From: a phage
NCBI GenBank assembly: GCA_012401045.1
Contig: GCA_012401045.1_4704.1
Length of the DNA: 64,000 nt
Strand: one strand, 5' to 3'
A model generated the notes under the pieces. It did not search any database. It worked only from the letters and a program-made list of their open reading frames with translations, and had not been told where the DNA came from. The position numbers and the translations under genes were made by a program. Shown here one piece after another: positions 5,956 through 54,777 of this stretch; within the stretch, counting starts at the first letter, position 1, and every line of letters starts with the position of its first letter.

Positions 5956-5966
5956 AATAGCATCCT

Positions 5967-7756: not shown

Positions 7757-8135
7757 TGTAACTCTCCAACGCCCAATTGTAAGGCCCTTCCAACATGTGT
7801 TCCCATACGTGAATAAACTCACTACCGAAGACAGGCTCCAGCGCCATGGTGAGATTCGTAAGTTCTGACGCAGCCGCATGGTAAGCATCAACATGTCTTT
7901 CCATTGACGGATCGTCTTCATTGAAAATACGTTCTGTGTCGCCAGCCCGCTCAATAAGTTCGGTAATGAGATCTGTCCATGTCTCGTGACACGTCATCAT
8001 TTCCTGTTCTCGACTTAGTATGCCGATGTCTGCGTGGACGCTGGACTCGAACCGGTCTAAAAGGACCCGAAGAACGTGCACCTTGTCGATGTATTTCACC
8101 GTTATCCAGGAAAGCGGTTGCCACCGACTCAGCAT
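7704..8135 (-). CDS. Hypothetical acidic helical protein (start uncertain: ATG 8135 or GTG 8099)
   Basis: The C-terminal ~140 aa of track ORF 7704..8333 look like genuine protein (ITVKYIDKVHVLRVLLDRFESS...). The upstream 66 aa overlap the good part of 7951..8928. Confidence 0.5.
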   Translation of the reverse strand: MLSRWQPLSWITVKYIDKVHVLRVLLDRFESSVHADIGILSREQEMMTCHETWTDLITELIERAGDTERIFNEDDPSMERHVDAYHAAASELTNLTMALEPVFGSEFIHVWEHMLEGPYNWALESYNAATFVAIFRAISERRF

Positions 8136-8928
8136 CCATCCGGTACTCGGGAACCCCAAACTCATATAGTACGGGTTGCACCGGACCGAAGACGGAGCGA
8201 CGTTGTTTAAATCGCTCCTTAAGGGCAAGGCCTTGTTTAATATAAACGGGTTCATTGGCGAGTTGTTCCGCTTTTCGTTTTGCGTGAGCCAATCGAAGTT
8301 CTTCCAATTGCCCAAGCCATTCAAATTGTTCATCTGTTAGCTCCTGGGGACGTTCAACAATCGCGCCAGACGGGCAGATATTGATCGTAATGTTAATTGA
8401 CGGCATCGCCATCACTCGAGGATTACTATTACGTACGCGGACAACATGTTCGGTTGCTGATTTACGATCGACGCAATACTCTGTTTCTTGGAACTCAAAT
8501 GCTTTTAACGGCGTTGGTTTTGTTTGACGTTTAGGAACGCGGCCAAGATCAACAATATAGGCATAATCGCACACACGTTCTATTCCGTAAATACGGTTAT
8601 CCGACCAGTTCTTACCAAACAGCTTGTTGTGATGATAAGACAAATATTCGGTTACCATACCCTGGACAACATCGAAATCTTCTCGAAATTCAGGTTGGTA
8701 CCAAATCGGGCCGAGAATATCTGCGAACGATTCATGACGATATCGAGGATCATGTCGAGTCCAGGTCATTCTCTGGTTAAGATCGAAATCCACCAACAAC
8801 TCGGTTAATTGCAATTTTTCCTTCGGAGAAAGCTGGCGTTGATGATGCAAACTCAGACAATCGATAAGCGGTAATGAAACCCACGATGCTAATGTGTACA
8901 AATCGATCCTGGCTAATCTCTTGGTCAT
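7951..8928 (-). CDS. Hypothetical protein (325 aa as tracked; the last ~45 aa are an Arg-rich tail of doubtful reality)
   Basis: The sequence is protein-like up to ...ATAFLDNGEIH (~8089). After that comes RQGARSSGPFRPVRVQRPRRHRHTKSRTG, which overlaps the next gene's frame. Confidence 0.6.
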   Translation of the reverse strand: MTKRLARIDLYTLASWVSLPLIDCLSLHHQRQLSPKEKLQLTELLVDFDLNQRMTWTRHDPRYRHESFADILGPIWYQPEFREDFDVVQGMVTEYLSYHHNKLFGKNWSDNRIYGIERVCDYAYIVDLGRVPKRQTKPTPLKAFEFQETEYCVDRKSATEHVVRVRNSNPRVMAMPSINITINICPSGAIVERPQELTDEQFEWLGQLEELRLAHAKRKAEQLANEPVYIKQGLALKERFKQRRSVFGPVQPVLYEFGVPEYRMDAESVATAFLDNGEIHRQGARSSGPFRPVRVQRPRRHRHTKSRTGNDDVSRDMDRSHYRTY

Positions 8929-8986
8929 ACTCTTTTCCTAAGTCCCCATTGTTTATACACACGATATCTGGGAATAGTTAAAATAT

Positions 8987-8994
8987 ACGGCGTA
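8987..8994 (-). promoter_or_regulatory. TACGCCGTATAT motif upstream of gene 7951..8928
   Basis: The minus strand reads TTTTACGCCGTATATTTTAAC. The same 12-mer TACGCCGTATAT recurs at 31554..31565 (octamer core at 31558..31565). Confidence 0.35.
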
Positions 8995-9019
8995 AAACGA
9001 AGCAGGAGAGTTTCTGACG

Positions 9020-9340
9020 TCATTTTCTCCCTCTTCGAATACTACCGATACCTCTTTCGTCTAAGACGTCCCAGGCACGCTTTATTTCATCCTCCGTTGC
9101 TCTGGTATCTGGAGGGACAACCATAACACAGTCGTGGAACGGCCAATGTGTAGGTCTGGGGTTAGCGAACAAATCATCCCATTCAAATGTCCATTCTTTC
9201 TTTGAGCGATTGTAGTAGAGTGTAAGGTACGTGTTGGTATACGCCGGATAACCGCGCATAACTTCAATATCCTTACGATCTTGCCGTTCCTGATTCCAAT
9301 CGTTAAACCGCTTTCTTATTTTCTCCCACCACTTTCCCAT
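9020..9340 (-). CDS. Hypothetical protein (106 aa)
   Basis: SD AGGAG lies before the ATG. No motif recognised. Confidence 0.7.
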   Translation of the reverse strand: MGKWWEKIRKRFNDWNQERQDRKDIEVMRGYPAYTNTYLTLYYNRSKKEWTFEWDDLFANPRPTHWPFHDCVMVVPPDTRATEDEIKRAWDVLDERGIGSIRRGRK

Positions 9341-9352
9341 GCTTTCTCCTAC

Positions 9353-9384
9353 ACGGCATAAAAGCCTGCCCCGAAGGACAGGCT
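9353..9384 (-). terminator. Terminator with UUCG loop, followed by TTTTATGCCGT
   Basis: The minus strand reads AGCCTGTCCTTCGGGGCAGGCT TTTATGCCGT. TATG (9360..9357) is 18 nt before ATG 9340. Confidence 0.75.
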
Positions 9385-9393
9385 CGATAGAAC

Positions 9394-9594
9394 TTAACGA
9401 CCATCCAATTTCAATGAAGGATGGTTGACGATATGTGCGTGTTTTGCTGGGTCATATAGCTGATATGGAAAATAGCCATGCCATTGACGGCCTTGGCATT
9501 TCGTACACAGGAACTGACCAACACCTTGTCGATTCTCGTAAGCGAGTTCGGTACTATCAACATGACCGCAACGTTCGCAGATAAACAGCGACAT
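9394..9594 (-). CDS. Small zinc-ribbon protein (66 aa)
   Basis: Two CxxC pairs: CERCGH ... CTKCQG. Confidence 0.65.
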   Translation of the reverse strand: MSLFICERCGHVDSTELAYENRQGVGQFLCTKCQGRQWHGYFPYQLYDPAKHAHIVNHPSLKLDGR

Positions 9595-9631
9595 AGCGCA
9601 TCCCCATTCACTTGAACCTTTTGGTTCGGCA

Positions 9632-10612
9632 TTAGAAAAGCAAGAAACCGCTATTCTTCGCTTCCGCTACAGTTTCGTCACCAACTTTCGGTGCCTGTTG
9701 ACGCGCGTTACGATGTTCGATGTAACGTTTCGCTTCGTCAGCGATTTGTTTGATAATACCCCCTAAACGATCGGTACTTAAAACAAACGACGTCGCTTCA
9801 CGAATTGGGCTGCTTTCAGGCACAAAACCATCGCAGCTGTAAATAGCGCTAACGCCCATGACTTTTGTCGCGTCTTTCGGATAAAGCGTACAGAAAGCAA
9901 TCGGGCTATCGTTCTCTTTCGTCCAATCGTATCCCATGAACGTATTCAGTTCGGTGATCGTTGGTTCCAAACCGGTAACACGTGGATGGTTTAAGAAGTT
10001 TTCCAGGTCGGCGCTGTCAAGACGACGGTTCTCGCCAGAAAACAGAACACAAAGCTGGCTAATAACAACCTGCACGTCCAGGTTGACATCCTGCTCCGAT
10101 TTCCCATTTTCGCCATTCATGTGATAGCTAACAATCACTGGACGTTTCAACCCTTCTGCAGCCGCCATCAGTCCTTTGAAGGTGCGATCGGCGTTGATCG
10201 TTTGACGCTCATCATCGAACGAGGCAACGATGCAACACACCACACGTTCACCACGTTCCAGCAGGTTAGCAACCAACGCAGGACCTGCAACAGAACCTGA
10301 ACCACCGCTCAGACTAAAGACCACGATATTAAATTTACCTGGCGTATGCTTATTCAGAATACCCGGGATTTGTGAACAGATCAGTTCAGCGTTCTCATCA
10401 CGCTTCTTACCAGAACCGTCTAACTCACGACCGGCTGCATCTTTAAAGATGTAAATATGATCGTCACCCAGTGTGCTATCGCGTAGGTTAGCGCGGCTGG
10501 TATCGACATACGTCATGCTGTGTAATCCTTTCGCGACTTCGCCTTCAAATGCTGAGCCGATTTCGCCACCACAACCACCGACAGCCCAAATATGTACTTG
10601 GTTCTCTTGCAT
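9632..10612 (-). CDS. phuZ: PhuZ-type phage tubulin
   Basis: 326 aa. The N-terminal AVGGCGGEIG is like the tubulin T1 loop. VVFSLSGGSGSVAGP is like the tubulin signature GGGTGSG. Overall layout and the C-terminal tail match PhuZ as I remember it from 201phi2-1. SD AGGAG. Confidence 0.8.
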   Translation of the reverse strand: MQENQVHIWAVGGCGGEIGSAFEGEVAKGLHSMTYVDTSRANLRDSTLGDDHIYIFKDAAGRELDGSGKKRDENAELICSQIPGILNKHTPGKFNIVVFSLSGGSGSVAGPALVANLLERGERVVCCIVASFDDERQTINADRTFKGLMAAAEGLKRPVIVSYHMNGENGKSEQDVNLDVQVVISQLCVLFSGENRRLDSADLENFLNHPRVTGLEPTITELNTFMGYDWTKENDSPIAFCTLYPKDATKVMGVSAIYSCDGFVPESSPIREATSFVLSTDRLGGIIKQIADEAKRYIEHRNARQQAPKVGDETVAEAKNSGFLLF

Positions 10613-10622
10613 GTGAACTCCT

Positions 10623-10634
10623 AACTTAATATGT
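10623..10634 (+). promoter_or_regulatory. AACTTAATATGT promoter-like motif
   Basis: An exact 12-mer is shared with 14622..14633 on the minus strand. In both cases TATG lies 41-44 nt upstream of the start codon. Confidence 0.5.
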
Positions 10635-10676
10635 ATTTAACGTACAATGAATCTTTCTTTGCTAAAGGGGTGACCC

Positions 10677-11519
10677 ATGGGTGCTATTGACTACAGTGTA
10701 GATCGTATCTGTCGTACAATACCGGCAGATATCCTACAGTATTGCTATATCGATCGTTACGACTGGCGTAATCGCTATCCTCGTTCCGTAGAAGACATCA
10801 TTACCGATTGGGTAATCCGTAAACGGGTTATCGGCGACATCGATATCTACGGGGGACTACAAACCGTTATTCCCCTTGATGATGCAGGTGTCACAATCGA
10901 AGAAGTCACCATTAACTGTTATGTTTTCCACATTCCGTTGGAAGCCACACAGGGACGTTATATCACGTCCGCATTATCCATTATTTCAGGGAGCGTGAAC
11001 AACTACGGAATAAACTATAACGGGCAATGGGGCGCTTTCAACCAAACCCAATTTCAACGTCAGCTTTGTGGGTGGAACCCCGCAAGCAACACGTTACAGC
11101 AAGGGATGAACGCGTTCGGTCCCATGAACGTTCTTAGTACAGCCAACGTTGATATCATCGCCCCTAACACCATCATGGTGAACAACGTCACGCCTGTACA
11201 ATTTCCCCTGAGCCTACGCTGTTTCCTTGCCCACGATCCGGAACTTACCAACCTCAGCATGGAGGTTTGGAACGACTTCTACAAACTCTGTTTATACGCC
11301 ACGCAAAGTGACATCTACAACAGAACCGTTATCCGTCTCGATAGAGGTGTTACAGCACAAGGACAAGAAGTCGGTGCATTCAAGGAATACATCGATCGCT
11401 TTGCTGATGCTGAAAACACATATCAGGAATTCCTGAACGAAACGTGGGCAGGCGTTGCTGCCTGGAACGATCCGCAAACTAAACGTCGCGCCATTCGACT
11501 ACAAACCGGTTACTTCTGA
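10677..11519 (+). CDS. Hypothetical protein (280 aa)
   Basis: Clean ORF preceded by AAAGGGG. No motif recognised. Confidence 0.75.
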   Translation: MGAIDYSVDRICRTIPADILQYCYIDRYDWRNRYPRSVEDIITDWVIRKRVIGDIDIYGGLQTVIPLDDAGVTIEEVTINCYVFHIPLEATQGRYITSALSIISGSVNNYGINYNGQWGAFNQTQFQRQLCGWNPASNTLQQGMNAFGPMNVLSTANVDIIAPNTIMVNNVTPVQFPLSLRCFLAHDPELTNLSMEVWNDFYKLCLYATQSDIYNRTVIRLDRGVTAQGQEVGAFKEYIDRFADAENTYQEFLNETWAGVAAWNDPQTKRRAIRLQTGYF

Positions 11520-12046
11520 TTAACGACAGCTTCCTCCCTCGGTGTTTTCGAGGGAGGTATTTGCCGTTTAAACACTTTCAGCACGTTCGCAAATTCAGCG
11601 GCAATAATACAGGCCGAGGTTGATAGCTTATTACTGAAAATGAGATCGTCCGGTAAACAATCGAACTGAATACCGTATTGCGTCTTTGTCTCATCAACGA
11701 TCAATGACGGTGTCGATCTTGTCTTCGCGATGTCGGTGATATACAAACGTAGAAATAATTCACCGTCTTCGCTATCCATAAAACGATAGGCGTTACCAGA
11801 AAACGCAACACATGGCGTAACGATAAATTGAACACGATCGTCGGTCGGATGGATATTTAACCAACGTTCGATATCATTACTACTCACATTTCGCATATTT
11901 ACTACGGTAAAAGCAAATAGCGTATCGTGATGTTTGGAATAATGCAGCACGTACGCCGCACCTTTCTTTTTGTGAATCCCTTCAATGTATTCTATTGTCG
12001 TATAGCCGGATTTATATAGCTTTACTTGCGGTTTATCACTCATCAT
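11510..12046 (-). CDS. Hypothetical protein (178 aa; start at ATGA overlap)
   Basis: MMSDKPQV starts at 12046 and overlaps the TGA of the upstream gene. The track's longer N-terminus lies inside that gene. Confidence 0.65.
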   Translation of the reverse strand: MMSDKPQVKLYKSGYTTIEYIEGIHKKKGAAYVLHYSKHHDTLFAFTVVNMRNVSSNDIERWLNIHPTDDRVQFIVTPCVAFSGNAYRFMDSEDGELFLRLYITDIAKTRSTPSLIVDETKTQYGIQFDCLPDDLIFSNKLSTSACIIAAEFANVLKVFKRQIPPSKTPREEAVVNQK

Positions 12047-12342
12047 AACAACCCTTCCCGTTTCATCGCGGCACGCATACTTGCGTAAAGCGCATTCTTC
12101 ATTGCACCCGGACGCAACGGATAACAAATCTCATATCGACGTCCTTGTTTTACAGCAATTTTCCTTCCATTCAGAAACAACGTGCCATTATCCAGCAACA
12201 ACTCACCTTGTAGTACCATGAGTCCTGCTTTAACATGACGTCCTTCTTCTTTCGTTAAGACCTTATAGCCGTGTTTATCCAATAACCACAATTCGTAGAT
12301 ACCATGCGCAGCCTTCGGCATTACTTTCTTCTTCGTCGTCAT
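12043..12342 (-). CDS. Hypothetical protein (99 aa)
   Basis: ORF with protein-like composition in an operon-like array. Confidence 0.65.
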   Translation of the reverse strand: MTTKKKVMPKAAHGIYELWLLDKHGYKVLTKEEGRHVKAGLMVLQGELLLDNGTLFLNGRKIAVKQGRRYEICYPLRPGAMKNALYASMRAAMKREGLL

Positions 12343-12354
12343 GGAAGATCCTCC

Positions 12355-12729
12355 TTAAACTCCTTGTCGGATCATCACCAACCGGAGCATGTTGTATTCC
12401 AATGTAGCGCTTTCTAATTCGAATTCATATCGATACCAGAAATTCGGCTCTAATTGACCTACAACACATTTACGAACATCTGTCTGCACCTTCCTCGACA
12501 ACACCTGTAACAGTTGTGTTATCTCCGGCTTGAAGTAATGCGCCAAACCTAACTGATCAGAATAAAACAGGCCACAATCAAAGATGGCCTGTAAAATAAC
12601 ATATTCAACCATCAGGTGACGCGCATCGGGGTCAGGGAATGGCGAACGTAAAGCGAGATCTAACACATCGACGATTGGGCCGACATAAATGGCGGCACGG
12701 TACTCACGAATAACACTGATGTTATCCAT
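12355..12729 (-). CDS. Hypothetical protein (124 aa)
   Basis: ORF in the same array. Confidence 0.65.
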   Translation of the reverse strand: MDNISVIREYRAAIYVGPIVDVLDLALRSPFPDPDARHLMVEYVILQAIFDCGLFYSDQLGLAHYFKPEITQLLQVLSRKVQTDVRKCVVGQLEPNFWYRYEFELESATLEYNMLRLVMIRQGV

Positions 12730-12742
12730 GATAACCTATTCG

Positions 12743-13567
12743 TTAACTGTCGCTTTCTGACGTATCGACGTAGTTGAAAATACGATCCCGTAAACACTCG
12801 TAACGAGGCAACGCGCTAAGAATGATCATCTTCAACTGCATCGCGATCGATACACGTTCTTCATCCGATGCATCGTCTCCCCATTTACCCGGCTTAACCT
12901 GAATGGGTTCGTGCGGATCCTGCGGGAATATAAAGCTTAACAACAGATAATCCGTGCGGAACTCCCACACTTCTCGACCGTCGTTATCGGTTTCCTTACG
13001 CAACGTGAAGAGTTGACGTTCGGTGGTTGGATCCAACATCAGCGGTCGGCCACGAACAATCTCCAGTTTACGTGGGCTGACGAACGTCGTACGTTCAGGA
13101 AGGTATTTTTCAACATCATCCGTATCCAACAAGAACAAAATGATGTCGTCGAAATACTTCGGTGCGTACGTGTGTATCGGTTCACCGTCGCTATACGAAG
13201 AGATCTCTTGAAGTATTGGTGTCTTACACGAAAAGTTCTGGCATGAGCCGCGGGTGATCGGTAAGGTGGTCCATTGATGTTCTGTAGACAATTCAACAGG
13301 CACTAACGGATAGTCATCAATGAAAACCACACACGTTGTACTAATGGGTATTCTTCCATCATTACCGGGTTCAAAAACCAAACGTATCTTACCGGTAATC
13401 AACGCCATCTCATCTGGCATTAAATGGCTTGCTGAACGGGCAAGTCTGAAACCGGCCGCCTGTTTATAAGGTTCGGGTTTATAGCCACGGACAATAAGAG
13501 AGACATCCGCAAGTTCAACGCTCACGAACGCATCTTTGGTGTCTTCATTGTTCGTCGTTAACGTCAT
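12743..13567 (-). CDS. Hypothetical protein (274 aa)
   Basis: Long ORF; no motif recognised. Confidence 0.75.
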   Translation of the reverse strand: MTLTTNNEDTKDAFVSVELADVSLIVRGYKPEPYKQAAGFRLARSASHLMPDEMALITGKIRLVFEPGNDGRIPISTTCVVFIDDYPLVPVELSTEHQWTTLPITRGSCQNFSCKTPILQEISSYSDGEPIHTYAPKYFDDIILFLLDTDDVEKYLPERTTFVSPRKLEIVRGRPLMLDPTTERQLFTLRKETDNDGREVWEFRTDYLLLSFIFPQDPHEPIQVKPGKWGDDASDEERVSIAMQLKMIILSALPRYECLRDRIFNYVDTSESDS

Positions 13568-14582
13568 TGTTCATTTTCTCCATTGCAACGAATCGTTCAA
13601 GCTCGCGTAATAAACGCTCTTTTAACGCAGGATCAACTTCCGGAGCATGTTTATCGCGATACCATTCGGTCCCGTTGTATTGCAGGCTAACATGCCATGT
13701 TCCTAACGGGCTTTCCTCTGCAGCGGCGATGAAATTCTTAACGCCGGTTTTGGTAGGATACTCCATGATAGGAATAGCCTGCTTCAGATCCATTACGGTA
13801 AGATCCTGGAAGTTATAATCCAGGAGCGTTAATGCACGTTTGTCGCGTAACAGTAACCCGCAATCCAAGATAGTGAAATCGATACCCCAAAATTGTAGCT
13901 TACCGCCCGTACTGATAGGAATATGACCGCGATAAACCGCGAGATAAATCTCACCTTTATCGGTTTCTTTATTGTATCCTGCGATGAATGCTGCGGTAAT
14001 TAACGGCTGATCGCCTTTCGCAAAGAAAACAGGATGCGTACGATAAAGCCAATCATTACGGATTAAATCGGATACCTGACCTAAACGTGCCGTGGGCACC
14101 ATTGTCGATCCTAAGTCACTATTACTAACTTCGAATTGGTAATATTCAAACAGAACACCGTCGACTTCTTCTTTAGCGTATGGTTCACGATCCGGATTAG
14201 CGAGTATATAACGCAACTTATTATCGATTTCGGCTACGCGTTCCTCATGGGTATCCATAAGGCTAGTGACGACGAAAGCAGCCAGATTACGTACGCTAAG
14301 GAACACGTCGTCTTTCTCCTGGTCGCTTAGTCCTTCTTCATCTGCTAGCGTTGTCCAATGCAGTGGTCCCTCCACCATTTTCAACCATTTGTCTTCACGC
14401 TCTGGGTAAACAAAGGGCTTGTGTACAGGAACGCTGGTATGCTGCACACGCAATAGTAACGAACAAGGGGATTGCATTATCGACTCCCATGGCACTATAC
14501 CACTCGTGACAGCGATGACGTGACGATTAAGAACAAGAGAAGCTGAATAAGTAATGTTATCTAATCCTGGTAATTGATCCAT
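13545..14582 (-). CDS. Hypothetical protein (345 aa)
   Basis: Long ORF; first gene downstream of the 308-nt AT-rich intergenic region. Confidence 0.75.
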   Translation of the reverse strand: MDQLPGLDNITYSASLVLNRHVIAVTSGIVPWESIMQSPCSLLLRVQHTSVPVHKPFVYPEREDKWLKMVEGPLHWTTLADEEGLSDQEKDDVFLSVRNLAAFVVTSLMDTHEERVAEIDNKLRYILANPDREPYAKEEVDGVLFEYYQFEVSNSDLGSTMVPTARLGQVSDLIRNDWLYRTHPVFFAKGDQPLITAAFIAGYNKETDKGEIYLAVYRGHIPISTGGKLQFWGIDFTILDCGLLLRDKRALTLLDYNFQDLTVMDLKQAIPIMEYPTKTGVKNFIAAAEESPLGTWHVSLQYNGTEWYRDKHAPEVDPALKERLLRELERFVAMEKMNNDVNDEQ

Positions 14583-29051: not shown

Positions 29052-29591
29052 TTACTGTTTGTTCGTGGCTTCACGAATGAAAATGACATCAGGATATTCT
29101 TGAGATTCAATGAATTCAGGATTACGATAACGACGAATATGACGCATCGTTGTACAAGCAAGTTTGTAAAGATGTTCCTCCTCACGTTGTGTTAATAACA
29201 TCAGTTGCGCGTCTGGAATCACGAATGGGAGTCTTTCATTCACGTATTCCCGAAGGTCATCGAGATCATCGTGATGAATGCCCTCTGAGAGCTTATATAA
29301 CGCTTCCAGCAATTCTAATCCACCGAACTGGTAACTTCCTATTGTCGTCTTAAACAATGCGCCAGAACGCGTGGTGGATGCTCTATCGGCGACATCGTAT
29401 TGTTCTAACATATATCCGTAGACCATGCTACGTCGATCCAGTGTATCCGTAACGAGATTACGCCACCGTTCCAGTCTTTCGAGCGCTTTGTCGATAGAGT
29501 AAACGATCATGCCATGTTCATCCAACTCTTCCGCAATACCCAATAGTTCATTGTTGTTAGGTTTTGCTGCACCGATAAGAAAAACACTCAT
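29052..29591 (-). CDS. Hypothetical protein (179 aa)
   Basis: Clean ORF with a stop/start overlap with the upstream gene at 29591. Confidence 0.7.
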   Translation of the reverse strand: MSVFLIGAAKPNNNELLGIAEELDEHGMIVYSIDKALERLERWRNLVTDTLDRRSMVYGYMLEQYDVADRASTTRSGALFKTTIGSYQFGGLELLEALYKLSEGIHHDDLDDLREYVNERLPFVIPDAQLMLLTQREEEHLYKLACTTMRHIRRYRNPEFIESQEYPDVIFIREATNKQ

Positions 29592-30004
29592 TACTCAAAC
29601 TCCTTATTCCAAAACTCGATTAATGAATCGAGCTGTTCCTTACTGGTTATCTCACCTCCCCTAACAAAATGAAATCGTTCTTGAATGGCGATCTTTTCAA
29701 GGATATCGGTAAGCAAATGACGGTGACAGAAATTTCCTGCAGGACAATAACACCCTAACACCACAACCGGATGGGAGAATAAAGCCAACCATTCCGGTGT
29801 ATGATCAACAAAGCTTTTGCGCATAAGCGCGTAGTAGCCTGTGGTATATTCATCCTCGGTTAACGTTTTTGATTTGATTCCTGTAACAAGTTCCCATGAA
29901 GGTGCGAAGAGTGGGTTACCTGTTTTCACCGTCGTGTCCAGTAGGAACGCTCGTGTGTCTGAAAGCCAACGATATTTGGCTAATTGAAGGGTGTATAAAA
30001 ACAC
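29591..30004 (-). CDS. DUF488/DUF4326-like protein
   Basis: 137 aa with a GTG start. LFAPSWELV...TEDEY...VVVLGCYCPAGNFCHRHLL matches the remembered DUF488 pattern (APS.eL ... LlC.E....CHR.l). Confidence 0.45.
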   Translation of the reverse strand: MFLYTLQLAKYRWLSDTRAFLLDTTVKTGNPLFAPSWELVTGIKSKTLTEDEYTTGYYALMRKSFVDHTPEWLALFSHPVVVLGCYCPAGNFCHRHLLTDILEKIAIQERFHFVRGGEITSKEQLDSLIEFWNKEFE

Positions 30005-30107: not shown

Positions 30108-30587
30108 TCAGTCTTTCAGCAGCTCAGCTGCATACGCACTGATGTTGTCGCGAATATGCTTAACCTGAGTTGTTGGGAAAGATTTCTTATACGCGGTGGT
30201 CAGGCGTCCGTAAACCTGTTTCTTCTCGTTAGAGCCGAAACCAACTTCAGCGCTACGTTGAACCGTTGCGGACACAACGTCTTTGCCCAGCGGCAGGGTT
30301 ACAGAAACAACGTCAACCTGCTTGTTATCCGCCATGAACTGCGCGCCAACGCGACCTACCGCCAGACCATGAGCCAGACCGATATCGGTGGTCAGTTTCT
30401 GTGCTTTTTCCAGGATTTCTTTTTCTTCCGGCGTTACCAGAGTACCCAGGAAATCACTGCCTAACTTCTGGCTACCAGATTCGTCCAGTTTAATACCAGC
30501 GGCGATTTTATCAGAAAGAGCCTGAACTTCCGGACGTACGTTAGAAGTGGTTTCAGTCGCTACGGTGGTTTCTACAGCTTCAGACAT
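30108..30587 (-). CDS. Highly expressed early-type protein of unknown function (159 aa, acidic N-terminus)
   Basis: Strong codon bias like the shell gene. It is a monocistronic unit bounded by TATATTACC promoter copy 2 and a terminator. No motif recognised. Confidence 0.8.
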   Translation of the reverse strand: MSEAVETTVATETTSNVRPEVQALSDKIAAGIKLDESGSQKLGSDFLGTLVTPEEKEILEKAQKLTTDIGLAHGLAVGRVGAQFMADNKQVDVVSVTLPLGKDVVSATVQRSAEVGFGSNEKKQVYGRLTTAYKKSFPTTQVKHIRDNISAYAAELLKD

Positions 30588-30705: not shown

Positions 30706-30741
30706 GTTAGGTAATATAGACCTCAACTTTTTTCCAATAAT
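30706..30741 (-). promoter_or_regulatory. Early-type promoter, copy 2
   Basis: The minus strand reads ATTATTGGAAAAAAGTTGAGGTCTATATTACCTAAC. The core (30718..30710) is 123 nt upstream of ATG 30587. The upstream half overlaps the stop of gene 30723..31523. Confidence 0.7.
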
Positions 30742-48952: not shown

Positions 48953-51094
48953 ATGGGTATTCTTGTTCAAAACGCCCTAATCACCAAACAAGCGTTTTTA
49001 TTACCAGGCGATAGCAGCACTCTGAGCGCCGACATGATTAAAGCGAGACATACACCGTATTCCTACGATAACGTCGATGATACCACCTTAGGTGGGAACT
49101 GGGTGCTTAACCCGCCGCCGCAATATACAAAATTTGCCGACATCAAAGAACGCCGACGTGCGGTTATGCCGGGATCAACGGGCATGGGTCGAGGCTATAG
49201 TGAAAGCATTAACAGCTTTAAAGAGGTCGTTACATTACGATTCGGTAAACCTCGCTTTACAGGCGCAAGTATCTTCTTTACTGATTTCTACGATGCGGAT
49301 GTTGCCGTAACGGTTAAAACCGGTCGCGATCCCGGTATTCTTTATTACGCAGCCAAAGCGTATACCACCGTTCTTTCTTACCTCACACCTCTACCCTACT
49401 TGTATATGGTTGGACGTATCGGTCGATATTTCCTGGGTAAGCCTACCAGTCAATATTACTATCAAGTACCAACCATGCACGTGTATTGGGCGTCTTTCCA
49501 AACACTGGTAAACCAAACAGCGATAAACATGGGTCTTATCGCCGGTGCCGGTAAAGATAAAGGCTATGTGGAAGAAGGGGGTACCGTACTCCACCAATAT
49601 TCAATCGGTGGTCAGAACGTTGAAGAATTCATCAACTACGCCTCTAAGACGCTACCGGGGATTTATAAGAAAGGTGGTGGGATCGATATCTACCAGATCG
49701 CAACACGACGTCAGCGCATACAGAACGCATGGGTACGTCGTATTCAATCCATGATGGAAAACGATTACTCGTCTTACGAGGAGTTCTGGAACGATCTTGA
49801 TAAACGACTTGATAGCGGAGCATTTCCATCGGATGTAACCGGCCGTACGTTAACGCAGTATCTCGCCGACACGCAGAAGTCTGCTGTTTACAGTGCGACA
49901 GCTGGTGATAATAAACAAACGATGGACGACCTTTTATTCGGAAGGGCCTCATACACCAACAAGGACGCTGATGCCAACTTCAATGTCTCTGCAGTCACCT
50001 CCGACGGCGGTACGTCAACACAAAGTCAGGGTACAACAGCCAATGTCGGTAATTCGACATCAGGGACAACGCAAGCTTCAACAGCAGCATCGACGGCTGG
50101 AGGTGCGAACGTACAGAGCAAAGGAATCGGGCAAACGAACGCAGCCGAAGAAGCTACATTTCTTGATCTGATGGATGCTGAACTGGCTGACGGTGCCCAG
50201 TTTATCAGTTTTCGAGTCGATTCTGTCACCAGTGTAACCGAAACGTTTTCAAACAGCGCTTCAGAAAGTTCTATTGCACAGACGATGAATAGCCGTGCAC
50301 AAGCGAACATCGAACGTCGTTTCACCCTTTCCGGTGGTAATACAGGTTGGGCTGTACTAGACGAAGCAATCAAAGCCGGTTCCGATCTCGTCAACGGTGC
50401 TATTTCCGGGATGGGTCTGGATGGTATTTTTGGGGCCTTCATGGGTTCCGGCTTCGCTGACATTCCGAAATTCTATTCTGGATCGTCAGTAAGTCTACCG
50501 CGCGCCGATCTGACGATGGAATTGCGTTCCTGGAGTGGGGATCGTTGGTCGATCTTTACGAACCTCATGGTGCCTCTTTTAGCTATCCTTGCAGGTGGTT
50601 TACCTCAGGCTACCGGTAAATCGTCCTACGGGATGCCGTTCATGTGTGAATGTTATATCCCTGGTAAAGTCCAGATTAAAATGGGTCTTATCGACAACAT
50701 CACTGTGACGCGTCACGTTGGAAACGTGCCATCAACACGTGAGCGGTTACCGTTGGGTATCGATGTCAGCTTCAGCGTTTATGACCTGTCGTCCATCGTC
50801 GCCATGCCGATCACAACGACGGCCGCATCGATCGCAAAATTGGATCCTCGTGGCTTCTTAAGTGATCTTCTTGCTGACGATACCCCACTCAACAACTATC
50901 TTGCTGTATTATCAGCATTGACGCTTACGGAACAAGTTTACATGATTCCTGATTTAAGTCGTCGCATGCATAAAACCATGGCTGATATCGATAGTTTCTG
51001 GAGCAAAGGTAATTTTGCTAGCTGGTTGTCTGACACCATGCCTGGCAGGATAGCATCAGGGCTGTTATGGAAACGTACAGAACGTCCGTTCTGA
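48953..51094 (+). CDS. Large hypothetical virion-type protein (713 aa)
   Basis: SD GAGGAA. It has an S/T/G/Q-rich low-complexity linker and follows the tape-measure-like gene. Confidence 0.75.
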   Translation: MGILVQNALITKQAFLLPGDSSTLSADMIKARHTPYSYDNVDDTTLGGNWVLNPPPQYTKFADIKERRRAVMPGSTGMGRGYSESINSFKEVVTLRFGKPRFTGASIFFTDFYDADVAVTVKTGRDPGILYYAAKAYTTVLSYLTPLPYLYMVGRIGRYFLGKPTSQYYYQVPTMHVYWASFQTLVNQTAINMGLIAGAGKDKGYVEEGGTVLHQYSIGGQNVEEFINYASKTLPGIYKKGGGIDIYQIATRRQRIQNAWVRRIQSMMENDYSSYEEFWNDLDKRLDSGAFPSDVTGRTLTQYLADTQKSAVYSATAGDNKQTMDDLLFGRASYTNKDADANFNVSAVTSDGGTSTQSQGTTANVGNSTSGTTQASTAASTAGGANVQSKGIGQTNAAEEATFLDLMDAELADGAQFISFRVDSVTSVTETFSNSASESSIAQTMNSRAQANIERRFTLSGGNTGWAVLDEAIKAGSDLVNGAISGMGLDGIFGAFMGSGFADIPKFYSGSSVSLPRADLTMELRSWSGDRWSIFTNLMVPLLAILAGGLPQATGKSSYGMPFMCECYIPGKVQIKMGLIDNITVTRHVGNVPSTRERLPLGIDVSFSVYDLSSIVAMPITTTAASIAKLDPRGFLSDLLADDTPLNNYLAVLSALTLTEQVYMIPDLSRRMHKTMADIDSFWSKGNFASWLSDTMPGRIASGLLWKRTERPF

Positions 51095-51107
51095 TATTCA
51101 CCGCATA

Positions 51108-51145
51108 AACCCCTCTCCCTTCCCTGATGGGTTGGGAGAGGGGTT
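51108..51145. terminator. 12-bp bidirectional terminator between convergent genes
   Basis: AACCCCTCTCCC (51108..51119) pairs with GGGAGAGGGGTT (51134..51145). Confidence 0.75.
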
Positions 51146-51148
51146 ATG

Positions 51149-52216
51149 TTAACCCAACGTCACCGTCGGTAAATCAGGATAAAGTTTCTTCAAGCCTGCC
51201 ATCGTGGTGGCAGTTGTATAATTCTTACCCATCGCAGCAAGAGATGCGTATTTCCTACTGCGGGAGAAAAGAGAATAGAACCCACTGGATGTTTCCATCC
51301 ACATCGTGAGGAGTTCTGCATCATTACCGTGATAGTTCGTTTTACTCCATCCTGGTTTAAACGCATCAGCAAAATCAATTAAACGCGATGCTTCAGCGTC
51401 GTATTCTTTAAGGGTAATATACGATGGGATACGGTAGTTACGAAACAATAACGTAATGAGTTCAGGGACAACGCTACGGGCACGTTCAGCAGTAATAAGT
51501 TCGGTGATAACGGCAGCTGTACGGAAATCGCCGTTAAGGCCAACGCTGCTTAACGATTCCGCTAAAGTGGTTGCCATCGCCACTTTATCCTCCGCTGATC
51601 CAGAGTCATACAGACTACGTACGTCGATATAGTTGCCCGCTAATGCGGCTTGACGAATCAACGATGTGACAACCGTCCGGTTCGTCTTATAGTCGTTGTA
51701 GCTGAATTCGGTTCGCGTTTTCCCTTGATCGTCGAGATACCGATCAACAATCGTCGACAGTTTATAATACTCGTCGCCAGACATCAGACTATCGAGAAGC
51801 TTAACGTTTCCATCTTTATCAATAAGCTTCCCTAACGCACCATTGGATTGCTGGTTAATGGTACTGTAAATCTGGTCTTTTACTTGCGATAGAATGTTAT
51901 CGGTTGACGATATATTCAGGCCAGTAACATCTTTGATCTTATTCATCAACGCGTTTTCATTCAGGGAGATTTTGCCTCCGCTGATATCGATGAAAGAATT
52001 AAGATCGCTTATGGAAATCAGGTTTCCTGTTAACGCCGATAATGTACTATTGATACTGTTCGTAATACTGCTGCGAAAACTGGTTAACGCATCCGCCGCT
52101 GAAACAGCGGTACCGCTAACCGCTTTAAGGAGCGTATCACGCCCTGTCGAAAAATCGCTGGTGATGGTTTTGATCTTGGACGTATCTATACTCGGCAGTT
52201 TGTCGTAAAGACTCAT
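51149..52216 (-). CDS. Hypothetical protein (355 aa; start at MSLYDKLPS)
   Basis: AGGAGG lies 6 nt upstream of ATG 52216. The track's extra 17 aa (MWVGFMPYFFFLF...) fall in the U-rich leader. Confidence 0.7.
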   Translation of the reverse strand: MSLYDKLPSIDTSKIKTITSDFSTGRDTLLKAVSGTAVSAADALTSFRSSITNSINSTLSALTGNLISISDLNSFIDISGGKISLNENALMNKIKDVTGLNISSTDNILSQVKDQIYSTINQQSNGALGKLIDKDGNVKLLDSLMSGDEYYKLSTIVDRYLDDQGKTRTEFSYNDYKTNRTVVTSLIRQAALAGNYIDVRSLYDSGSAEDKVAMATTLAESLSSVGLNGDFRTAAVITELITAERARSVVPELITLLFRNYRIPSYITLKEYDAEASRLIDFADAFKPGWSKTNYHGNDAELLTMWMETSSGFYSLFSRSRKYASLAAMGKNYTTATTMAGLKKLYPDLPTVTLG

Positions 52217-52245
52217 CACGTCCTCCTGAAAAAGAAAAAAGAAAT

Positions 52246-52282
52246 ACGGCATAAAGCCTACCCACACAATGGTGGGTAGGCT
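52246..52282 (-). terminator. 11-bp terminator, followed by TTTATGCCGT
   Basis: AGCCTACCCAC (52255..52265) pairs with GTGGGTAGGCT (52272..52282). The minus strand continues TTTATGCCGTATTTCTTTTTTC, and TATG (52253..52250) is ~35 nt before ATG 52216. Confidence 0.8.
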
Positions 52283-52298
52283 AAGATCAACATCGATG

Positions 52299-52811
52299 TT
52301 AAACTTCTTCGTTTTCTGAACCTAATGATTCAGCATCTGGATCGTCAACAGGAATGGTTGCATCAAAATACCGTTTCGTATGCGTGGTTGTATATCCTAC
52401 GCTATCTGTGATGGAAATCGTAAACGTGACTTCCCTTGCACGGATTAAGCGTAGTTTATTCATGAAGTTACGGAACGGCATCGATCCCCGATTCAACTCC
52501 TTAATGACGTTTCCCCGAATACTGGAAATGTCTTTATTCGTTTTATCAGGGTGTCGTTTCTTCACATCACGCATATGTCGGGTAATATACGAATTGAGCT
52601 GATTTGCGCCGATCCCTCTCTCCGTATAAATCTGCAACAGGAACTCCGTAAGGAAATCCTGTCTACCCGTAGGCGTCCAGAAATTGTTACCGTGATTGTA
52701 GTTAGTCGCTCGTCCTCGATTGCTTTGAGGATTTTCATCATCGCTTTCATCACGACGCTTAAGCGGATTAATGCGTGCGCGGAAAGAGACTTCATTATAT
52801 TTATTTGTCAT
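52299..52811 (-). CDS. Hypothetical basic protein (170 aa; start at MTNKYNEV)
   Basis: ATGA overlap with the upstream gene at 52808..52811. Second gene of the promoter-copy-3 unit. Confidence 0.65.
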   Translation of the reverse strand: MTNKYNEVSFRARINPLKRRDESDDENPQSNRGRATNYNHGNNFWTPTGRQDFLTEFLLQIYTERGIGANQLNSYITRHMRDVKKRHPDKTNKDISSIRGNVIKELNRGSMPFRNFMNKLRLIRAREVTFTISITDSVGYTTTHTKRYFDATIPVDDPDAESLGSENEEV

Positions 52812-53323
52812 AATACACCAGTGTACTGACTGAGTGCGAAGGTTAGGAGTTCGCAACAGTCTCTCGCTAGTTTCCTTGTTTTGCGTAATCCATAAGCCGC
52901 ATCCAAATCGTCACGTTCCGCCAGCGCGTCTAACCACGTCGCAAGTATGCGTCCATACTCGATAACGTCACGCATGAGAACGTCGAACCGGATAACACGA
53001 CCATCGGCATCAGCAAGCCAACGATTGAACGTGATTTGTGGTGCTAGTATTGCATATGTTCTCTCCTCTAATGCGATTATGTTTATGTTGCCTTCGTTAT
53101 CGAACGCTTGATGCCAACGGCGAAGGTCAAGCATCAACGACTCAGCGTCCATATACCACAACGGTAAATACGTTTTACGTGCAACGCGTATATCGTAGAT
53201 GTTGTGAACCCAGGACGTTGTTTTGTAAAGCAACAAGAGTTCGTTTAACCGTTGCCTATCATCTTGAAACGTCTTCCTTTTATAACGTTGGAACGCACGC
53301 CTCAAGAAAAAGCGATGTAACAT
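52808..53323 (-). CDS. Hypothetical protein (171 aa), first gene of an early-type unit
   Basis: ATG 53323 lies 91 nt downstream of the promoter copy 3 core. Confidence 0.7.
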   Translation of the reverse strand: MLHRFFLRRAFQRYKRKTFQDDRQRLNELLLLYKTTSWVHNIYDIRVARKTYLPLWYMDAESLMLDLRRWHQAFDNEGNINIIALEERTYAILAPQITFNRWLADADGRVIRFDVLMRDVIEYGRILATWLDALAERDDLDAAYGLRKTRKLARDCCELLTFALSQYTGVL

Positions 53324-53409
53324 GGCATCACCTATGTATCATTCTTGCAGGCATCAATGAAGCCATCACAAGAAGGTAACGTTATACGTCGCCTTCATGA
53401 CTGTCATCA

Positions 53410-53445
53410 TGAAGGTAATATAGTCCTGTTATTTTTTTCAATACG
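53410..53445 (-). promoter_or_regulatory. Early-type promoter, copy 3
   Basis: The minus strand reads CGTATTGAAAAAAATAACAGGACTATATTACCTTCA, with the core at 53422..53414. Confidence 0.7.
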
Positions 53446-53456
53446 GAGAATGTAAA

Positions 53457-54086
53457 ATGAGCGAATATGGTGTTGCCCCCGTAGATGATGAACCGCAAGA
53501 AGCACCTGATAAATTCGAGGTCCGTCTTGACGAAACCCGTAATATCCGCCAACGATTTATTCAACGCCTTGAAATGCTGTTAGATAGCGAATTCAAAGAT
53601 TTCGAGCTTAATCCTGGCGCTGATAACAAAGCCATCGTCGACGTCGAAAACGTCGACCGAATAGGTAAGCTGTTGTTGAAATCGTTGGGCGATAACGACA
53701 AAGTCGACTTAACGTTGAAACGTATCAGTGCCGACCAGGCCATGAATGACAGCGCACTGAAAACAGCACAAGCCCTAACCGAAACCATGCTGCGCCGCTT
53801 AGGTCAGATGGATCAACATCCTCTCGCAGCAGGGGCTGTTTATGAAGGCGAAGTCGTGAAGCCAGTCACGCCTGAAGAACGTGATCGTCGACTTGGTTTT
53901 GCGTCATTGGAAGAGTTCGATAGCAAGGAGTTCTCACCAGGCGTTCTCATCCAGGGACGTGTCGAAGAAACCAGCGATGCTTTCTATGCTAGAATGGCTC
54001 AACTGACGGCGTCGGTTCGTGAGGAGGTATCTCAGAAGATGGCTGCAGATCATCAGTCTTCGGAGGCGTCACACGAGGAGGAATAA
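53457..54086 (+). CDS. Hypothetical acidic protein (209 aa)
   Basis: SD GGAGAA. The 3' end overlaps the convergent gene 53989..54777 by 98 nt. Confidence 0.7.
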   Translation: MSEYGVAPVDDEPQEAPDKFEVRLDETRNIRQRFIQRLEMLLDSEFKDFELNPGADNKAIVDVENVDRIGKLLLKSLGDNDKVDLTLKRISADQAMNDSALKTAQALTETMLRRLGQMDQHPLAAGAVYEGEVVKPVTPEERDRRLGFASLEEFDSKEFSPGVLIQGRVEETSDAFYARMAQLTASVREEVSQKMAADHQSSEASHEEE

Positions 54087-54777
54087 AATAACTGAACCAT
54101 TTTATTCCAAAGAACCGCATGAACATCACAGGCGCGTTAGAAAGTTCGATTGCTTCGTAAAGTTTGTCATAAGCCAGATCGGAATCAGGGATGGTTTCAC
54201 TGATTCGTCTGGCTACAACCAATACGTTACAAATCGGATTGTCTTCTAACAGCATCTGATTGGGGAGGTGCCAGCGTTTGAAATCGTAAAAGAACATCGC
54301 ATTATACGTCTTACGGATTTCTGACGGATGCAGTGTGGCCGGATGACGGTAAATAATCTCAACGCTATCTTGCGCGCCGAGGTATTGCTGGATGCCTTCT
54401 TTTAACGCAATTGCAGCATCTCCCACAAATTCAAACGGGTACGTATTCACATGAACCGAAAAATCCGGTGCGGCAATCCCTGTCAAGCGGTCTTTCATGT
54501 AGTCCGCAACCACGTAACATAATCGCCACATCAACTCCGTCGGAATACATTTATCAAGAATGGTTTCATCGATATTTGCCAACGCACCCTTAAACTCTTC
54601 GTAAGTGTAAGTAACACCCGCCTGCTTTTCCGGCTCCAGGTTATAGGGTCGGTAATGCCATTTCTTCCCCCACTTTCTGATAGCCTCAGGATCCAACGTT
54701 GTTGCTACCGCCATTTCGATATCAAGCAGCGCCTCGAGTTCTACGTACACCGTCACTAACGCCGCATTTCCAGTCAT
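53989..54777 (-). CDS. Hypothetical protein (262 aa)
   Basis: ATGA overlap with the upstream gene. The Pro-rich C-terminal 30 aa lie in the convergent overlap. Confidence 0.7.
   Translation of the reverse strand: MTGNAALVTVYVELEALLDIEMAVATTLDPEAIRKWGKKWHYRPYNLEPEKQAGVTYTYEEFKGALANIDETILDKCIPTELMWRLCYVVADYMKDRLTGIAAPDFSVHVNTYPFEFVGDAAIALKEGIQQYLGAQDSVEIIYRHPATLHPSEIRKTYNAMFFYDFKRWHLPNQMLLEDNPICNVLVVARRISETIPDSDLAYDKLYEAIELSNAPVMFMRFFGIKWFSYFIPPRVTPPKTDDLQPSSEIPPHEPTPSVEPF

Follow-up and report, generated by a model that had tools for sequence, protein, structure and literature searches.

A Goslar-lineage gene pair behind a phiKZ-type early promoter probably represents the conserved chimallivirus pair phiKZ gp170-gp171

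The phage phiKZ carries 32 early promoters of a type used by the virion polymerase, and the shell gene is early and vRNAP-dependent in both phiKZ and Goslar. Two adjacent phiKZ genes, gp170 and gp171, are the closest described counterparts of the pair analysed here. In the source data of Gerovac et al. 2025, PHIKZ171 collects 3615, 5852, 4704, 2793 and 1341 reads at 5, 10, 15, 20 and 30 min of the control infection and PHIKZ170 collects 1437, 2047, 1618, 961 and 328. The RNA of both genes is there at 5 min, peaks at 10 min and is down by 30 min, a curve that has the shape of the early nvRNAP gene PHIKZ074 and is opposite to that of the capsid gene PHIKZ120. Under ChmA knock-down the reads rise from 3691 to 14495 for PHIKZ171 and from 1450 to 3998 for PHIKZ170 (Gerovac et al. 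2025); the RNA profile of gp170 and gp171 is early and ChmA-independent. Of two antisense oligomers against PHIKZ171 one was effective, with a rating of ++ for its effect on plaques and ++ for its effect on ChmA, both of which were reduced. Transposon sequencing (Tn-seq) of phiKZ recovered no insertions in PHIKZ170 or PHIKZ171, compared with 10 in gp172 and 34 in gp173, and the zero count for gp170 could reflect a polar effect on gp171. The gp171 protein is imported into the phage nucleus via PicA/Imp1, PhiPA3 gp200 likewise undergoes nuclear import, and these orthologues of the second gene of the pair (core gene cg52) are concentrated inside the phage nucleus by 10 min.

The window, that is, the whole 64,000-nt stretch of DNA analysed, shares 98% nucleotide identity with the E. 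coli jumbo phage Goslar, in which the same two genes are annotated. The features of the locus, in window coordinates, are these:

53457..54086, plus strand: neighbouring gene in divergent orientation, not part of the unit; Goslar HOV27_gp199 (positional homologue in phiKZ: gp169)
53407..53443, minus strand: copy 3 of the predicted early promoter (virion-RNA-polymerase type), TATTGAAAAAAATAACAGGACTATATTACCTTCATGA; its core TATATTAC is at 53422..53415
53392..53415, minus strand: perfect inverted repeat, CCTTCATGA-TGACAG-TCATGAAGG; it lies across the promoter's 3′ edge and the site where the transcript is expected to begin
53324..53406, minus strand: 5′ leader of the A-B unit, ~80-90 nt, with an AGGTGA ribosome-binding site as its 3′ end
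52808..53323, minus strand: gene A, 171 aa; Goslar_00236, RefSeq HOV27_gp200 (Goslar gp236)
52299..52811, minus strand: gene B, 170 aa; Goslar_00235, HOV27_gp201 (Goslar gp235)
52250..52282, minus strand: terminator-like hairpin plus TTTAT, with an 11-bp perfect stem and a 6-nt loop
51149..52216, minus strand: downstream neighbour, likewise not part of the unit; encodes the lower-wedge protein of the inner baseplate (Goslar HOV27_gp202; core gene cg53; phiKZ gp174)

The AGGTGA site precedes the ATG of gene A, and the start codon of B (ATG, 52811..52809) overlaps the stop codon of A (TGA, 52810..52808) in the sequence GTATT-ATGA-CAAAT. This ATGA overlap is also present in a diverged relative (L002), and comparison of both ORFs with that relative gives pN values of 0.33-0.35 and pS values of 0.80-0.84, which indicates purifying selection. 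On the other side of the promoter element, the divergent HOV27_gp199 gene begins 14 nt away. The assignment of Goslar gp202 as a wedge protein comes from cryo-EM and mass spectrometry (bioRxiv 10.64898/2026.04.21.720040). An Rfam scan of positions 51000-54500 returned chance miRNA matches only. The unit is placed between the virion-RNAP genes and the baseplate genes. The compact two-gene unit proposed by a first-pass annotation of this DNA is borne out: a phiKZ-type early promoter, the 171-aa and 170-aa genes with their overlap, and a conserved hairpin in front of a late structural gene.

How does this arrangement compare with other chimalliviruses? The order divergent gene, A, B and baseplate wedge gene was found at 11 of the 11 chimallivirus loci examined. 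The order is kept in Goslar, L002, LucasX, FLC1-1B, RP12, an RP12-like IMG/VR contig (L009), FBKp24, 2050HW, another IMG/VR contig (L008), RAY, PCH45 and phiKZ. A and B are direct neighbours in unchanged order throughout, the divergent gene is found in all related loci, and 0-2 genes lie between B and the wedge gene. We estimate at roughly 0.75 the probability that this unit is the Goslar-lineage version of a pair of genes that is conserved throughout Chimalliviridae and is represented by gp170-gp171 in phiKZ and gp158-gp159 in RAY.

Gene B matches PHROG 4910 (2.5e-6) and PHROG 7801 (8.7e-5), families that include phiKZ gp171 and RAY gp159, and a family profile containing B retrieves these two proteins at 3.8e-32 and 1.6e-21, respectively. 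Goslar gp235 is entered as cg52 in the Chimalliviridae core-genome table (Prichard et al. Table S3), and it lies where cg52 is expected, within core block 6 and on the 5′ side of cg53, the wedge gene. Judged by sequence, gene B is the core gene cg52, the family of phiKZ gp171 (Nlp4), PhiPA3 gp200 and RAY gp159, with which it shares a conserved S-x-R-G-N-L-N-K-E-L helix; within B this invariant polar helix reads S97-x-R99-G-N101-x-x-K-E-L. It differs from its relatives in carrying a disordered, Asn/Arg-rich N-terminus of 42 residues and an acidic tail. The domain is present once in gene B (170 aa), RAY, LucasX and L008, whereas in phiKZ, PhiPA3 and the Ralstonia, Klebsiella and Serratia phages it occurs twice in tandem, in proteins of 250-290 aa. 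Since the core member RAY gp159 is also single-copy, the two-copy architecture does not define the family. Literature searches under Goslar gp235/236 and gp200/201 yielded nothing on these genes; the gp200 matches concerned PhiPA3 gp200, the relevant homologue.

That neither product has a recognisable motif, as had been stated earlier, holds for Pfam, NCBIfam and PADLOC, where, as in a PDB profile search, the products gave nothing above noise; it does not hold for B at the level of published phage families, since B belongs to cg52/Nlp4. The second protein had also been described as basic and of nucleic-acid-binding appearance. It is indeed basic (pI 9.4; R 10.6%, N 10%), and consists of the disordered segment 1-42, a basic folded core at ~45-155 (pI 10.4) and the acidic tail. 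In the AF2 model the core reaches a pLDDT of ~90 and forms a strongly basic four-helix plus beta-hairpin fold. Its nucleic-acid-binding look, in turn, found no counterpart in a fold, as neither structural nor profile matching returned a helix-turn-helix or a known DNA- or RNA-binding fold, and comparison of the model with solved structures gave no convincing match. From the modelled core, nucleic-acid binding by B is plausible.

Gene A is also basic (pI 9.1) and mostly helical, and its relationships are harder to trace. Among 1.8 billion representatives it has three convincing relatives. A fourth match, to a 498-aa repeat protein (E 1e-4), looks spurious. Searches by tblastn against phages, among 5.8 billion proteins and by a full phmmer scan recovered none beyond the Goslar clade. 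Gene A has no PHROG match, while RAY gp158 matches the PHROG of phiKZ gp170 at 7.7e-7. In a small local database the top matches of gene A are its positional equivalents, and hhalign against these positional homologues gave a probability of 33% when 6 sequences were used and of 82% (E 9.8e-6) when there were 9. Like phiKZ gp170 and RAY gp158 (PHROG 14309 / 11398), gene A encodes a protein of ~170 aa directly 5′ of the cg52 gene, and it has in common with them a W-L-x-D-x-x-G-R region and a helical C-terminal region; sequence similarity to them is nevertheless marginal. Gene A is probably a fast-evolving positional homologue of phiKZ gp170 and RAY gp158, as one profile-profile score and its position suggest. 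It does not appear on the published Chimalliviridae core list. The structure prediction and Foldseek comparison recommended by the first-pass annotation led from B to PhiPA3 gp200 but to no convincing solved structure, and from A to nothing, the AF2 model of A (5 sequences) being poor, with a pLDDT of 60.

The constant company of the two genes raises the question of whether A serves B directly, either as a dedicated chaperone or import adaptor, or as the obligate partner in an A-B heterodimer that replaces the second B domain in single-domain lineages. The two genes are always neighbours in the same order, with the ATGA overlap both here and in L002, the RNA profiles of phiKZ gp170 and gp171 run in parallel, and phiKZ does have cargo-specific adaptors (Imp2, Imp4, Imp5 and Imp7). 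However, A is also present where B has two domains (phiKZ, FBKp24), and selections with EcoRI-Nlp4 yielded escape mutations in imp1 only and not in gp170, a weak objection because an essential gp170 would be unrecoverable. We regard either form of this arrangement as unlikely. The possibility that phiKZ gp170 is itself a known import factor was discarded, as it is none of Imp1-7.

Turning to the promoter, the 29-nt consensus TTGRAAAAAANNNNAGGNNTATATTACCT has three exact matches in the 64-kb window, all on the minus strand (1745-1773, 30709-30737 and 53413-53441); even at 3 mismatches the window holds no extra match, and the consensus is absent from 100 shuffles. Copy 1 lies 72 nt upstream of the ATG of chimallin, the shell gene, at 1674. 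The earlier statement that the pair has its promoter in common with the shell gene is therefore correct in that copies 1 and 3 share the exact 29-nt consensus. The end of the promoter core is separated from the ATG of the gene by 72 nt at copy 1, by 123 nt at copy 2 and by 91 nt at copy 3; the leader in L002 is just 14 nt. The element in the window matches the early-promoter consensus of phiKZ, 201phi2-1 and OBP (PMC7058600 Table 2), and resembles those of 201phi2-1 and OBP in its core, TATATTAC, in an A/T-rich 5′ element and in a G/TGA that lies a few bases 3′ of the core. The Goslar lineage departs from the others in an extended form of its own, TATTGRAAAAAAnnnnAGGnnTATATTACCTnnnTGA. At 9 of 11 related loci, the corresponding place holds a core of the form (C/T)A(T/C)AT(T/C)A(C/T), and on the 5′ side of this core is a tract rich in A and T. 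The spacer between phiKZ gp169 and gp170 lacks an exact core of the early promoter; the closest such cores are 2-2.6 kb 5′ of gp170, before gp166 and gp166.1. PCH45 has a weak match at the equivalent locus; this promoter is thus not universal for the A-B pair. Matches to sigma-70 sites in the region are at chance level. Copy 3 would be read, from its motif, as a phiKZ-type early (virion RNAP) promoter. Promoters of this class start transcription ~10 nt 3′ of the core and act in the first minutes without need of the phage nucleus; for copy 3, start site and timing are predicted from the motif and the behaviour of the orthologues. The inverted repeat CCTTCATGA-TGACAG-TCATGAAGG at copy 3 is lacking at copies 1 and 2. 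Other hairpins occupy its position in the Ralstonia-phage loci.

Could the likeness to early promoters mislead, so that A and B are in fact made late, as virion or injected proteins? The location of the unit, between virion-RNAP and baseplate genes, would suit such products, and one gp201 peptide was listed for purified Goslar virions. In that virion mass spectrometry, however, gp201 amounts to ~1.4 copies per virion, below the 5-copy threshold of its authors, in a preparation that also contained nucleus fragments and PhuZ, and gp200 is not among the matches listed. The RNA of the phiKZ orthologues, moreover, falls late, as capsid mRNA rises. We consider late virion proteins extremely unlikely. 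As far as these virion listings go, the products of A and B are not virion components, in agreement with the earlier expectation for an early unit.

A second alternative assigns the pair to the cytoplasm, as host-takeover effectors acting on host machinery in the first minutes of infection; host-takeover and toxicity assays had been suggested earlier. The early type of the promoter and the small size, basic character and lack of a known domain of both proteins would be in keeping with it. Against it, the orthologues of B concentrate in the phage nucleus by 10 min, and B, as a core gene, is retained in phages whose hosts range from Pseudomonas to Vibrio, Ralstonia and Xanthomonas, a breadth that suits a role within the phage programme better than a host-specific target. 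The usual host-takeover genes, furthermore, lie in the variable, non-essential part of the genome, whereas phiKZ gp170 and gp171 tolerate no insertions. A role in host takeover is very unlikely, given that it is within the phage nucleus that the orthologues of B operate.

At the other end of the unit, the hairpin at 52282..52255 has the form AGCCTACCCAC-CATTGT-GTGGGTAGGCT, folds at -21.5 kcal/mol (z-score -4.6; 0 of 200 shuffles fold as well) and occurs once in the window. It is followed by UUUAUGCCGUAUUUCUUUUUU, in which the U-run is interrupted (T-run TTTATGCC), and for this reason a simple terminator scan does not call it. The 32-nt block of hairpin plus TTTAT is identical in L002 at 32 of 32 positions, in a setting where flanking DNA has diverged and synonymous sites are saturated; stem and loop are both invariant between relatives with ~50% protein identity. 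This sequence conservation supports a function for the hairpin. Like the intrinsic terminators of phiKZ-like phages, it closes a transcription unit with a GC-rich, perfectly paired stem-loop and has T-rich sequence behind it; unlike them, it has an interrupted T-run and a sequence-invariant stem and loop. The equivalent unit is closed by a hairpin with (C)TTTAT or a short T-run in FBKp24, where it is annotated as a terminator, and in 2050HW, FLC1-1B and LucasX, and in RAY the hairpin at its end is followed by CGCTAT. The structure might, rather than terminate efficiently, stabilise the RNA 3′ end, be processed or act as an attenuator, with read-through into the baseplate gene. The interrupted U-run (UUUAUGCC) missed by a generic scan, a loop conserved as well as the stem, which is beyond the needs of a terminator, and a gap of just 38 nt to gp202 with no separate promoter confirmed there all speak for this. 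Nevertheless, we find it improbable, in view of the hairpin and T-rich tail ending the equivalent unit in several distant phages, one of them with an annotated terminator, of the intrinsic-terminator motif that is conserved in phiKZ-like phages and found at many of their mapped 3′ ends, and of the wastefulness of early read-through into gp202, a late virion protein.

Taking the hairpin as a terminator, we propose the following model for the A-B unit. The injected virion RNA polymerase would start a few bases 3′ of the TATATTAC core, with the A-tract 5′ of it, as motif and orthologue timing suggest, and produce a single mRNA with a leader of 80-90 nt followed by A and B. The observed ATGA overlap may couple translation of the two genes, and transcription would stop at the conserved hairpin, insulating the late baseplate gene. 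By analogy with phiKZ gp171 and PhiPA3 gp200, B would be made in the cytoplasm in the first minutes, then enter the phage nucleus, just formed, by way of PicA/Imp1, and be needed for the replication and transcription programme to proceed. Because of its basic core, its invariant polar helix and the tandem duplication of the domain in most relatives, B would most likely bind phage DNA, or nucleic-acid machinery, as a dimer. A would be its rapidly diverging partner, co-transcribed and co-regulated with B, whose phiKZ counterpart is equally free of insertions. Carrying this further, A and B might together make up a DNA-binding module that resides in the phage nucleus, is essential and specific to chimalliviruses, and has a fold unlike solved structures, for instance an organiser of the injected genome or a licenser of the early-to-middle switch, in which the single-domain B of Goslar, RAY and LucasX pairs with itself or with A and so mimics the two-domain phiKZ form. 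We offer this extension tentatively and hold it to be rather doubtful.

The A-B pair is a real unit of a known family, predicted to be early, and the finding is in itself ordinary annotation, gp235 being already on record as a chimallivirus core gene. What it adds is that this core gene is accompanied everywhere by a fast-evolving partner absent from the core-genome list, and that the fold of the core protein, predicted with confidence, is strongly basic and without a solved relative. For these reasons, and because both phiKZ genes are early and free of insertions, the pair is a reasonable target for learning what must be present within the phage nucleus in its first phase, and E. coli with Goslar is a tractable system for such work.

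Between positions 51000 and 55000, the window shares 98% identity with Escherichia phage vB_EcoM_Goslar, a jumbo phage that forms a nucleus. The first-pass annotation had proposed a two-gene unit bounded by promoter copy 3, one of three instances of an early-type promoter element, and a hairpin, and every element was found where it had been placed. Goslar genes carry two numbering schemes in the literature (GenBank and RefSeq), which are not to be mixed; both are given here for the pair.

53413-53441, minus strand: promoter copy 3
52808..53323, minus strand: gene A, 171 aa; Goslar_00236 (GenBank) = HOV27_gp200 (RefSeq), annotated in Goslar as "hypothetical protein"
52299..52811, minus strand: gene B, 170 aa; Goslar_00235 (GenBank) = HOV27_gp201 (RefSeq), annotated in Goslar as "hypothetical protein"
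52282..52255, minus strand: terminator-like hairpin

The start codon of gene B and the stop codon of gene A share an ATGA tetranucleotide. As had been noted, the gene B product is basic and rich in Arg and Asn (pI 9.4, 10.6% Arg, 10% Asn); the gene A product is also basic (pI 9.1). The same four genes occur in L002 (Logan SRR22177369), a relative from metagenomic data, with ~46-53% protein identity across aligned positions; L002 also retains the ATGA overlap. For both ORFs, pN between the window and L002 (0.33-0.35) is far below pS (0.80-0.84, saturated), and each gene is therefore under purifying selection. A 98%-identical copy of B (P0001) lies on a contig of 114.6 kb and is attributed by name to Escherichia coli, so a bacterial assembly contains Goslar-like phage DNA.

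Outside the Goslar clade, neither A nor B has BLAST-level relatives, and the weak tblastn matches of B all fall in chimalliviruses, the nucleus-forming jumbo phages. One locus order is found throughout: a small divergent gene, a ~170-aa gene, the B homologue, zero to two extra genes and a baseplate wedge gene. It is shared by Goslar, L002, Xanthomonas phage LucasX, Ralstonia phage FLC1-1B, RP12, an RP12-like contig, Klebsiella phage FBKp24, Serratia phages 2050HW and PCH45, an IMG/VR contig, Erwinia phage RAY and phiKZ, where it reads gp169, gp170, gp171, gp172, gp173, gp174. The A/B unit is conserved and is no orphan. Its divergent neighbour, gp199 (window 53457-54086, plus strand), is equivalent to phiKZ gp169 (3839-4354 of locus L015), which is listed as non-core, yet has a positional homologue in every locus examined. 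In phiKZ this gene, too, seems to matter: Tn-seq recorded 1 insertion (3 reads), and antisense knock-down gave scores of + (plaques) and ++ (ChmA, the shell protein). At its other end, gp199 converges with gp198 (minus strand, ending at 53989) in a 98-nt overlap (53989-54086), annotated likewise in Goslar, which leaves no space for terminators between them.

The TTGRAAAAAANNNNAGGNNTATATTACCT pattern of the promoter has exactly three matches in the 64 kb, all on the minus strand (1745-1773, 30709-30737 and 53413-53441); allowing up to 3 mismatches gave no further match in the window, and none in shuffled sequence. Copy 1 lies 72 nt 5′ of a long ORF, which extends past the window edge and which, from its translation, we take to be the shell protein chimallin. 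The position of this ORF agrees with Goslar gp189 in the published core table, and Goslar chmA is transcribed early, from the vesicle containing the injected genome. The element also agrees with the early-promoter strings that have been published for phiKZ-like phages (PMC7058600, Table 2), namely TATATTAC in phiKZ, ...TTTRARR_BTATATTACDWHDGTG in 201phi2-1 and ...TTTYARRYAKATATTATYWWADTG in OBP. The injected virion RNA polymerase of phiKZ uses such AT-rich promoters, and in 201phi2-1 the start site lies ~10 bp 3′ of the motif. In L002, a promoter-like TACATTACCTAGGTG lies 14 nt ahead of gene A and is preceded by an A-rich tract, and a (C/T)A(T/C)AT(T/C)A(C/T) core with a 5′ A/T-rich tract adjoins the divergent gene in 9 of 11 loci. 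This core was not found in the phiKZ spacer beside the divergent gene, and PCH45 gave only a weak match. The exact cores closest to phiKZ gp170 lie at 1855-1862 and 2371-2378 of L015, ahead of gp166 and gp166.1; gp166 is Imp7, an nvRNAP import factor, and thus shares one early-gene neighbourhood with gp171, a nuclear cargo.

Other features accompany the promoter copies. Copy 2 (30709-30737, minus strand) lies 123 nt 5′ of three small same-strand ORFs (30108-30587, 29591-30004 and 29052-29591), probably another early unit. Only copy 3 has a perfect 9-bp inverted repeat, CCTTCATGA-TGACAG-TCATGAAGG (53392-53415, minus strand), which begins within the final bases of the promoter core and may serve as a signal in the DNA itself or form a stem-loop at the 5′ end of the early mRNA. 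At the equivalent position, Ralstonia-phage loci L009 and L010 contain other hairpins with GACAG. A gap of 14 nt separates the A/B promoter element from the start codon of gp199. On the opposite strand, a sigma-70-like match (ATGACT-16-TATAGT, 9/12; 53397-53424, plus strand) lies over the early-promoter core, 33 nt 5′ of the gp199 start, such matches being at chance level regionally.

The first-pass annotation saw no recognisable motif in either product. A indeed has no match in any family library; B matches PHROG 4910 and PHROG 7801, whose model members are phiKZ gp171 and RAY gp159. When B is aligned with its syntenic counterparts, a conserved core stands out, L..LF......W.....Y..DP.N......S..RGNLNKEL...MTW.VF.KGL.FL, and the family profile matches phiKZ gp171 at 3.8e-32 and RAY gp159 at 1.6e-21. 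None of the 90 clusters recovered by a search with this alignment has a Pfam domain, and most come from 200-300 kb contigs. An AlphaFold2 model of B from a 69-sequence alignment predicts disorder in residues 1-42 and in the acidic tail, and a core (pLDDT ~90) of four helices (53-65, 69-86, 92-106, 113-122) and a beta-hairpin (127-149); Foldseek with this model against viral predicted structures found family members, PhiPA3 gp200 among them. Together with the core-genome table, in which Goslar gp235, phiKZ gp171 and RAY gp159 form cg52 (block 6, marked as found only in phages that encode chimallin; Prichard et al. 2023, Table S3), these matches identify B as an already known core gene. Most members have two tandem copies of the cg52 domain, including phiKZ, PhiPA3 and Ralstonia, Klebsiella and Serratia phages (L005, L006, L007, L013, L015), and the Goslar, RAY, LucasX and L008 lineages have one (window, L004, L008, L012). 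In 2050HW (L007, 2432-3280), the annotated homologue ends at 202 aa and the remainder of the second repeat seems to run on in the next 240 nt, which suggests a frameshift or sequencing error in that record.

Gene A has diverged further. A scan of 1.8 billion representatives gave only three convincing relatives, the AlphaFold2 model was poor (pLDDT 60), and Foldseek on it was uninformative. A and its positional equivalents visibly share a W-L-x-D-x-x-G-R segment and C-terminal helices. In hhalign, the Goslar-clade alignment matched nine positional equivalents with 82% probability (E 9.8e-6, 91 columns) and six sequences with 33% (4.5e-4), and RAY gp158 matches the PHROG of phiKZ gp170 at 7.7e-7. 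With moderate confidence, these alignments point to A as a fast-evolving homologue of phiKZ gp170. The latter is not a named import factor, being absent from the Imp1-Imp7 list (gp69, gp47, gp59, gp48, gp287, gp67 and gp166, respectively).

The hairpin closing the unit, AGCCTACCCAC-CATTGT-GTGGGTAGGCT, folds at -21.5 kcal/mol (z = -4.6); a generic terminator scan missed it because the T-run behind it is interrupted (TTTATGCC...TTTCTTTTTT). The 32-nt block of hairpin plus TTTAT is identical at 32/32 positions in the window (52250-52282, minus strand) and L002 (6050-6081), loop included, with scrambled flanks, against a background of ~50% protein identity and saturated synonymous sites. This degree of conservation exceeds what a terminator acting through structure alone would need. 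Most related loci also end the unit in a hairpin and a T-rich tail, annotated as a terminator in FBKp24. In the Goslar cryo-EM model, the product of the first gene beyond it, HOV27_gp202, is a lower-wedge protein of the inner baseplate, and HOV27_gp203 belongs to the tail-tube initiator. Goslar virion mass spectrometry recorded one peptide of gp201 (estimated 1.4 copies per virion, below the cut-off of five that the authors set); chimallin and PhuZ were present in the preparation as well, and gp200 is not among the proteins listed in the accessible part of the table. Neither is a virion component, and the hairpin thus lies between the early unit and a late structural gene.

What do the orthologues of B do? 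PhiPA3 gp200 was found by proximity labelling, and its GFP fusion is inside the phage nucleus. phiKZ gp171 (Nlp4) enters the phiKZ nucleus, not the PhiPA3 one. The protein is diffuse at 5 min and has reached the nucleus by 10 min, import is delayed by a PicA mutant, and EcoRI-Nlp4 selections gave escape mutations only in imp1 (PicA). One of two antisense oligomers against PHIKZ171 was effective (++ plaque reduction, ++ ChmA reduction). Tn-seq of phiKZ gave 0 reads and 0 insertions in PHIKZ170 and PHIKZ171, as in chmA, the nvRNAP genes and picA, with 10 insertions in gp172 and 34 in gp173. In the RNA-seq time course of the antisense study, PHIKZ170 and PHIKZ171 RNA is present at 5 min, peaks at 10 min and is lower by 30 min in controls, and continues to rise under ChmA knock-down. 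This profile has the shape of the early nvRNAP gene PHIKZ074, opposite to that of the capsid gene PHIKZ120.

The early-unit interpretation is thus supported, indirectly but consistently, and the host-takeover role also suggested for the pair is not. Our analysis establishes the sequence elements, shows that they are non-random and conserved, places B in its family and documents the synteny; timing, localisation and requirement come from the orthologue papers. The unit falls within a core-gene family that has been described before. In the model that we propose, the virion RNA polymerase would initiate at promoter copy 3, A and B would be carried on a single mRNA with coupled translation, and transcription would halt at the conserved hairpin. 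A would be the co-regulated partner of B. As with its orthologues, B would enter the nascent phage nucleus via PicA/Imp1, where our best guess is that a B dimer binds phage DNA or the replication and transcription machinery, and it would be required for the phage programme to advance.
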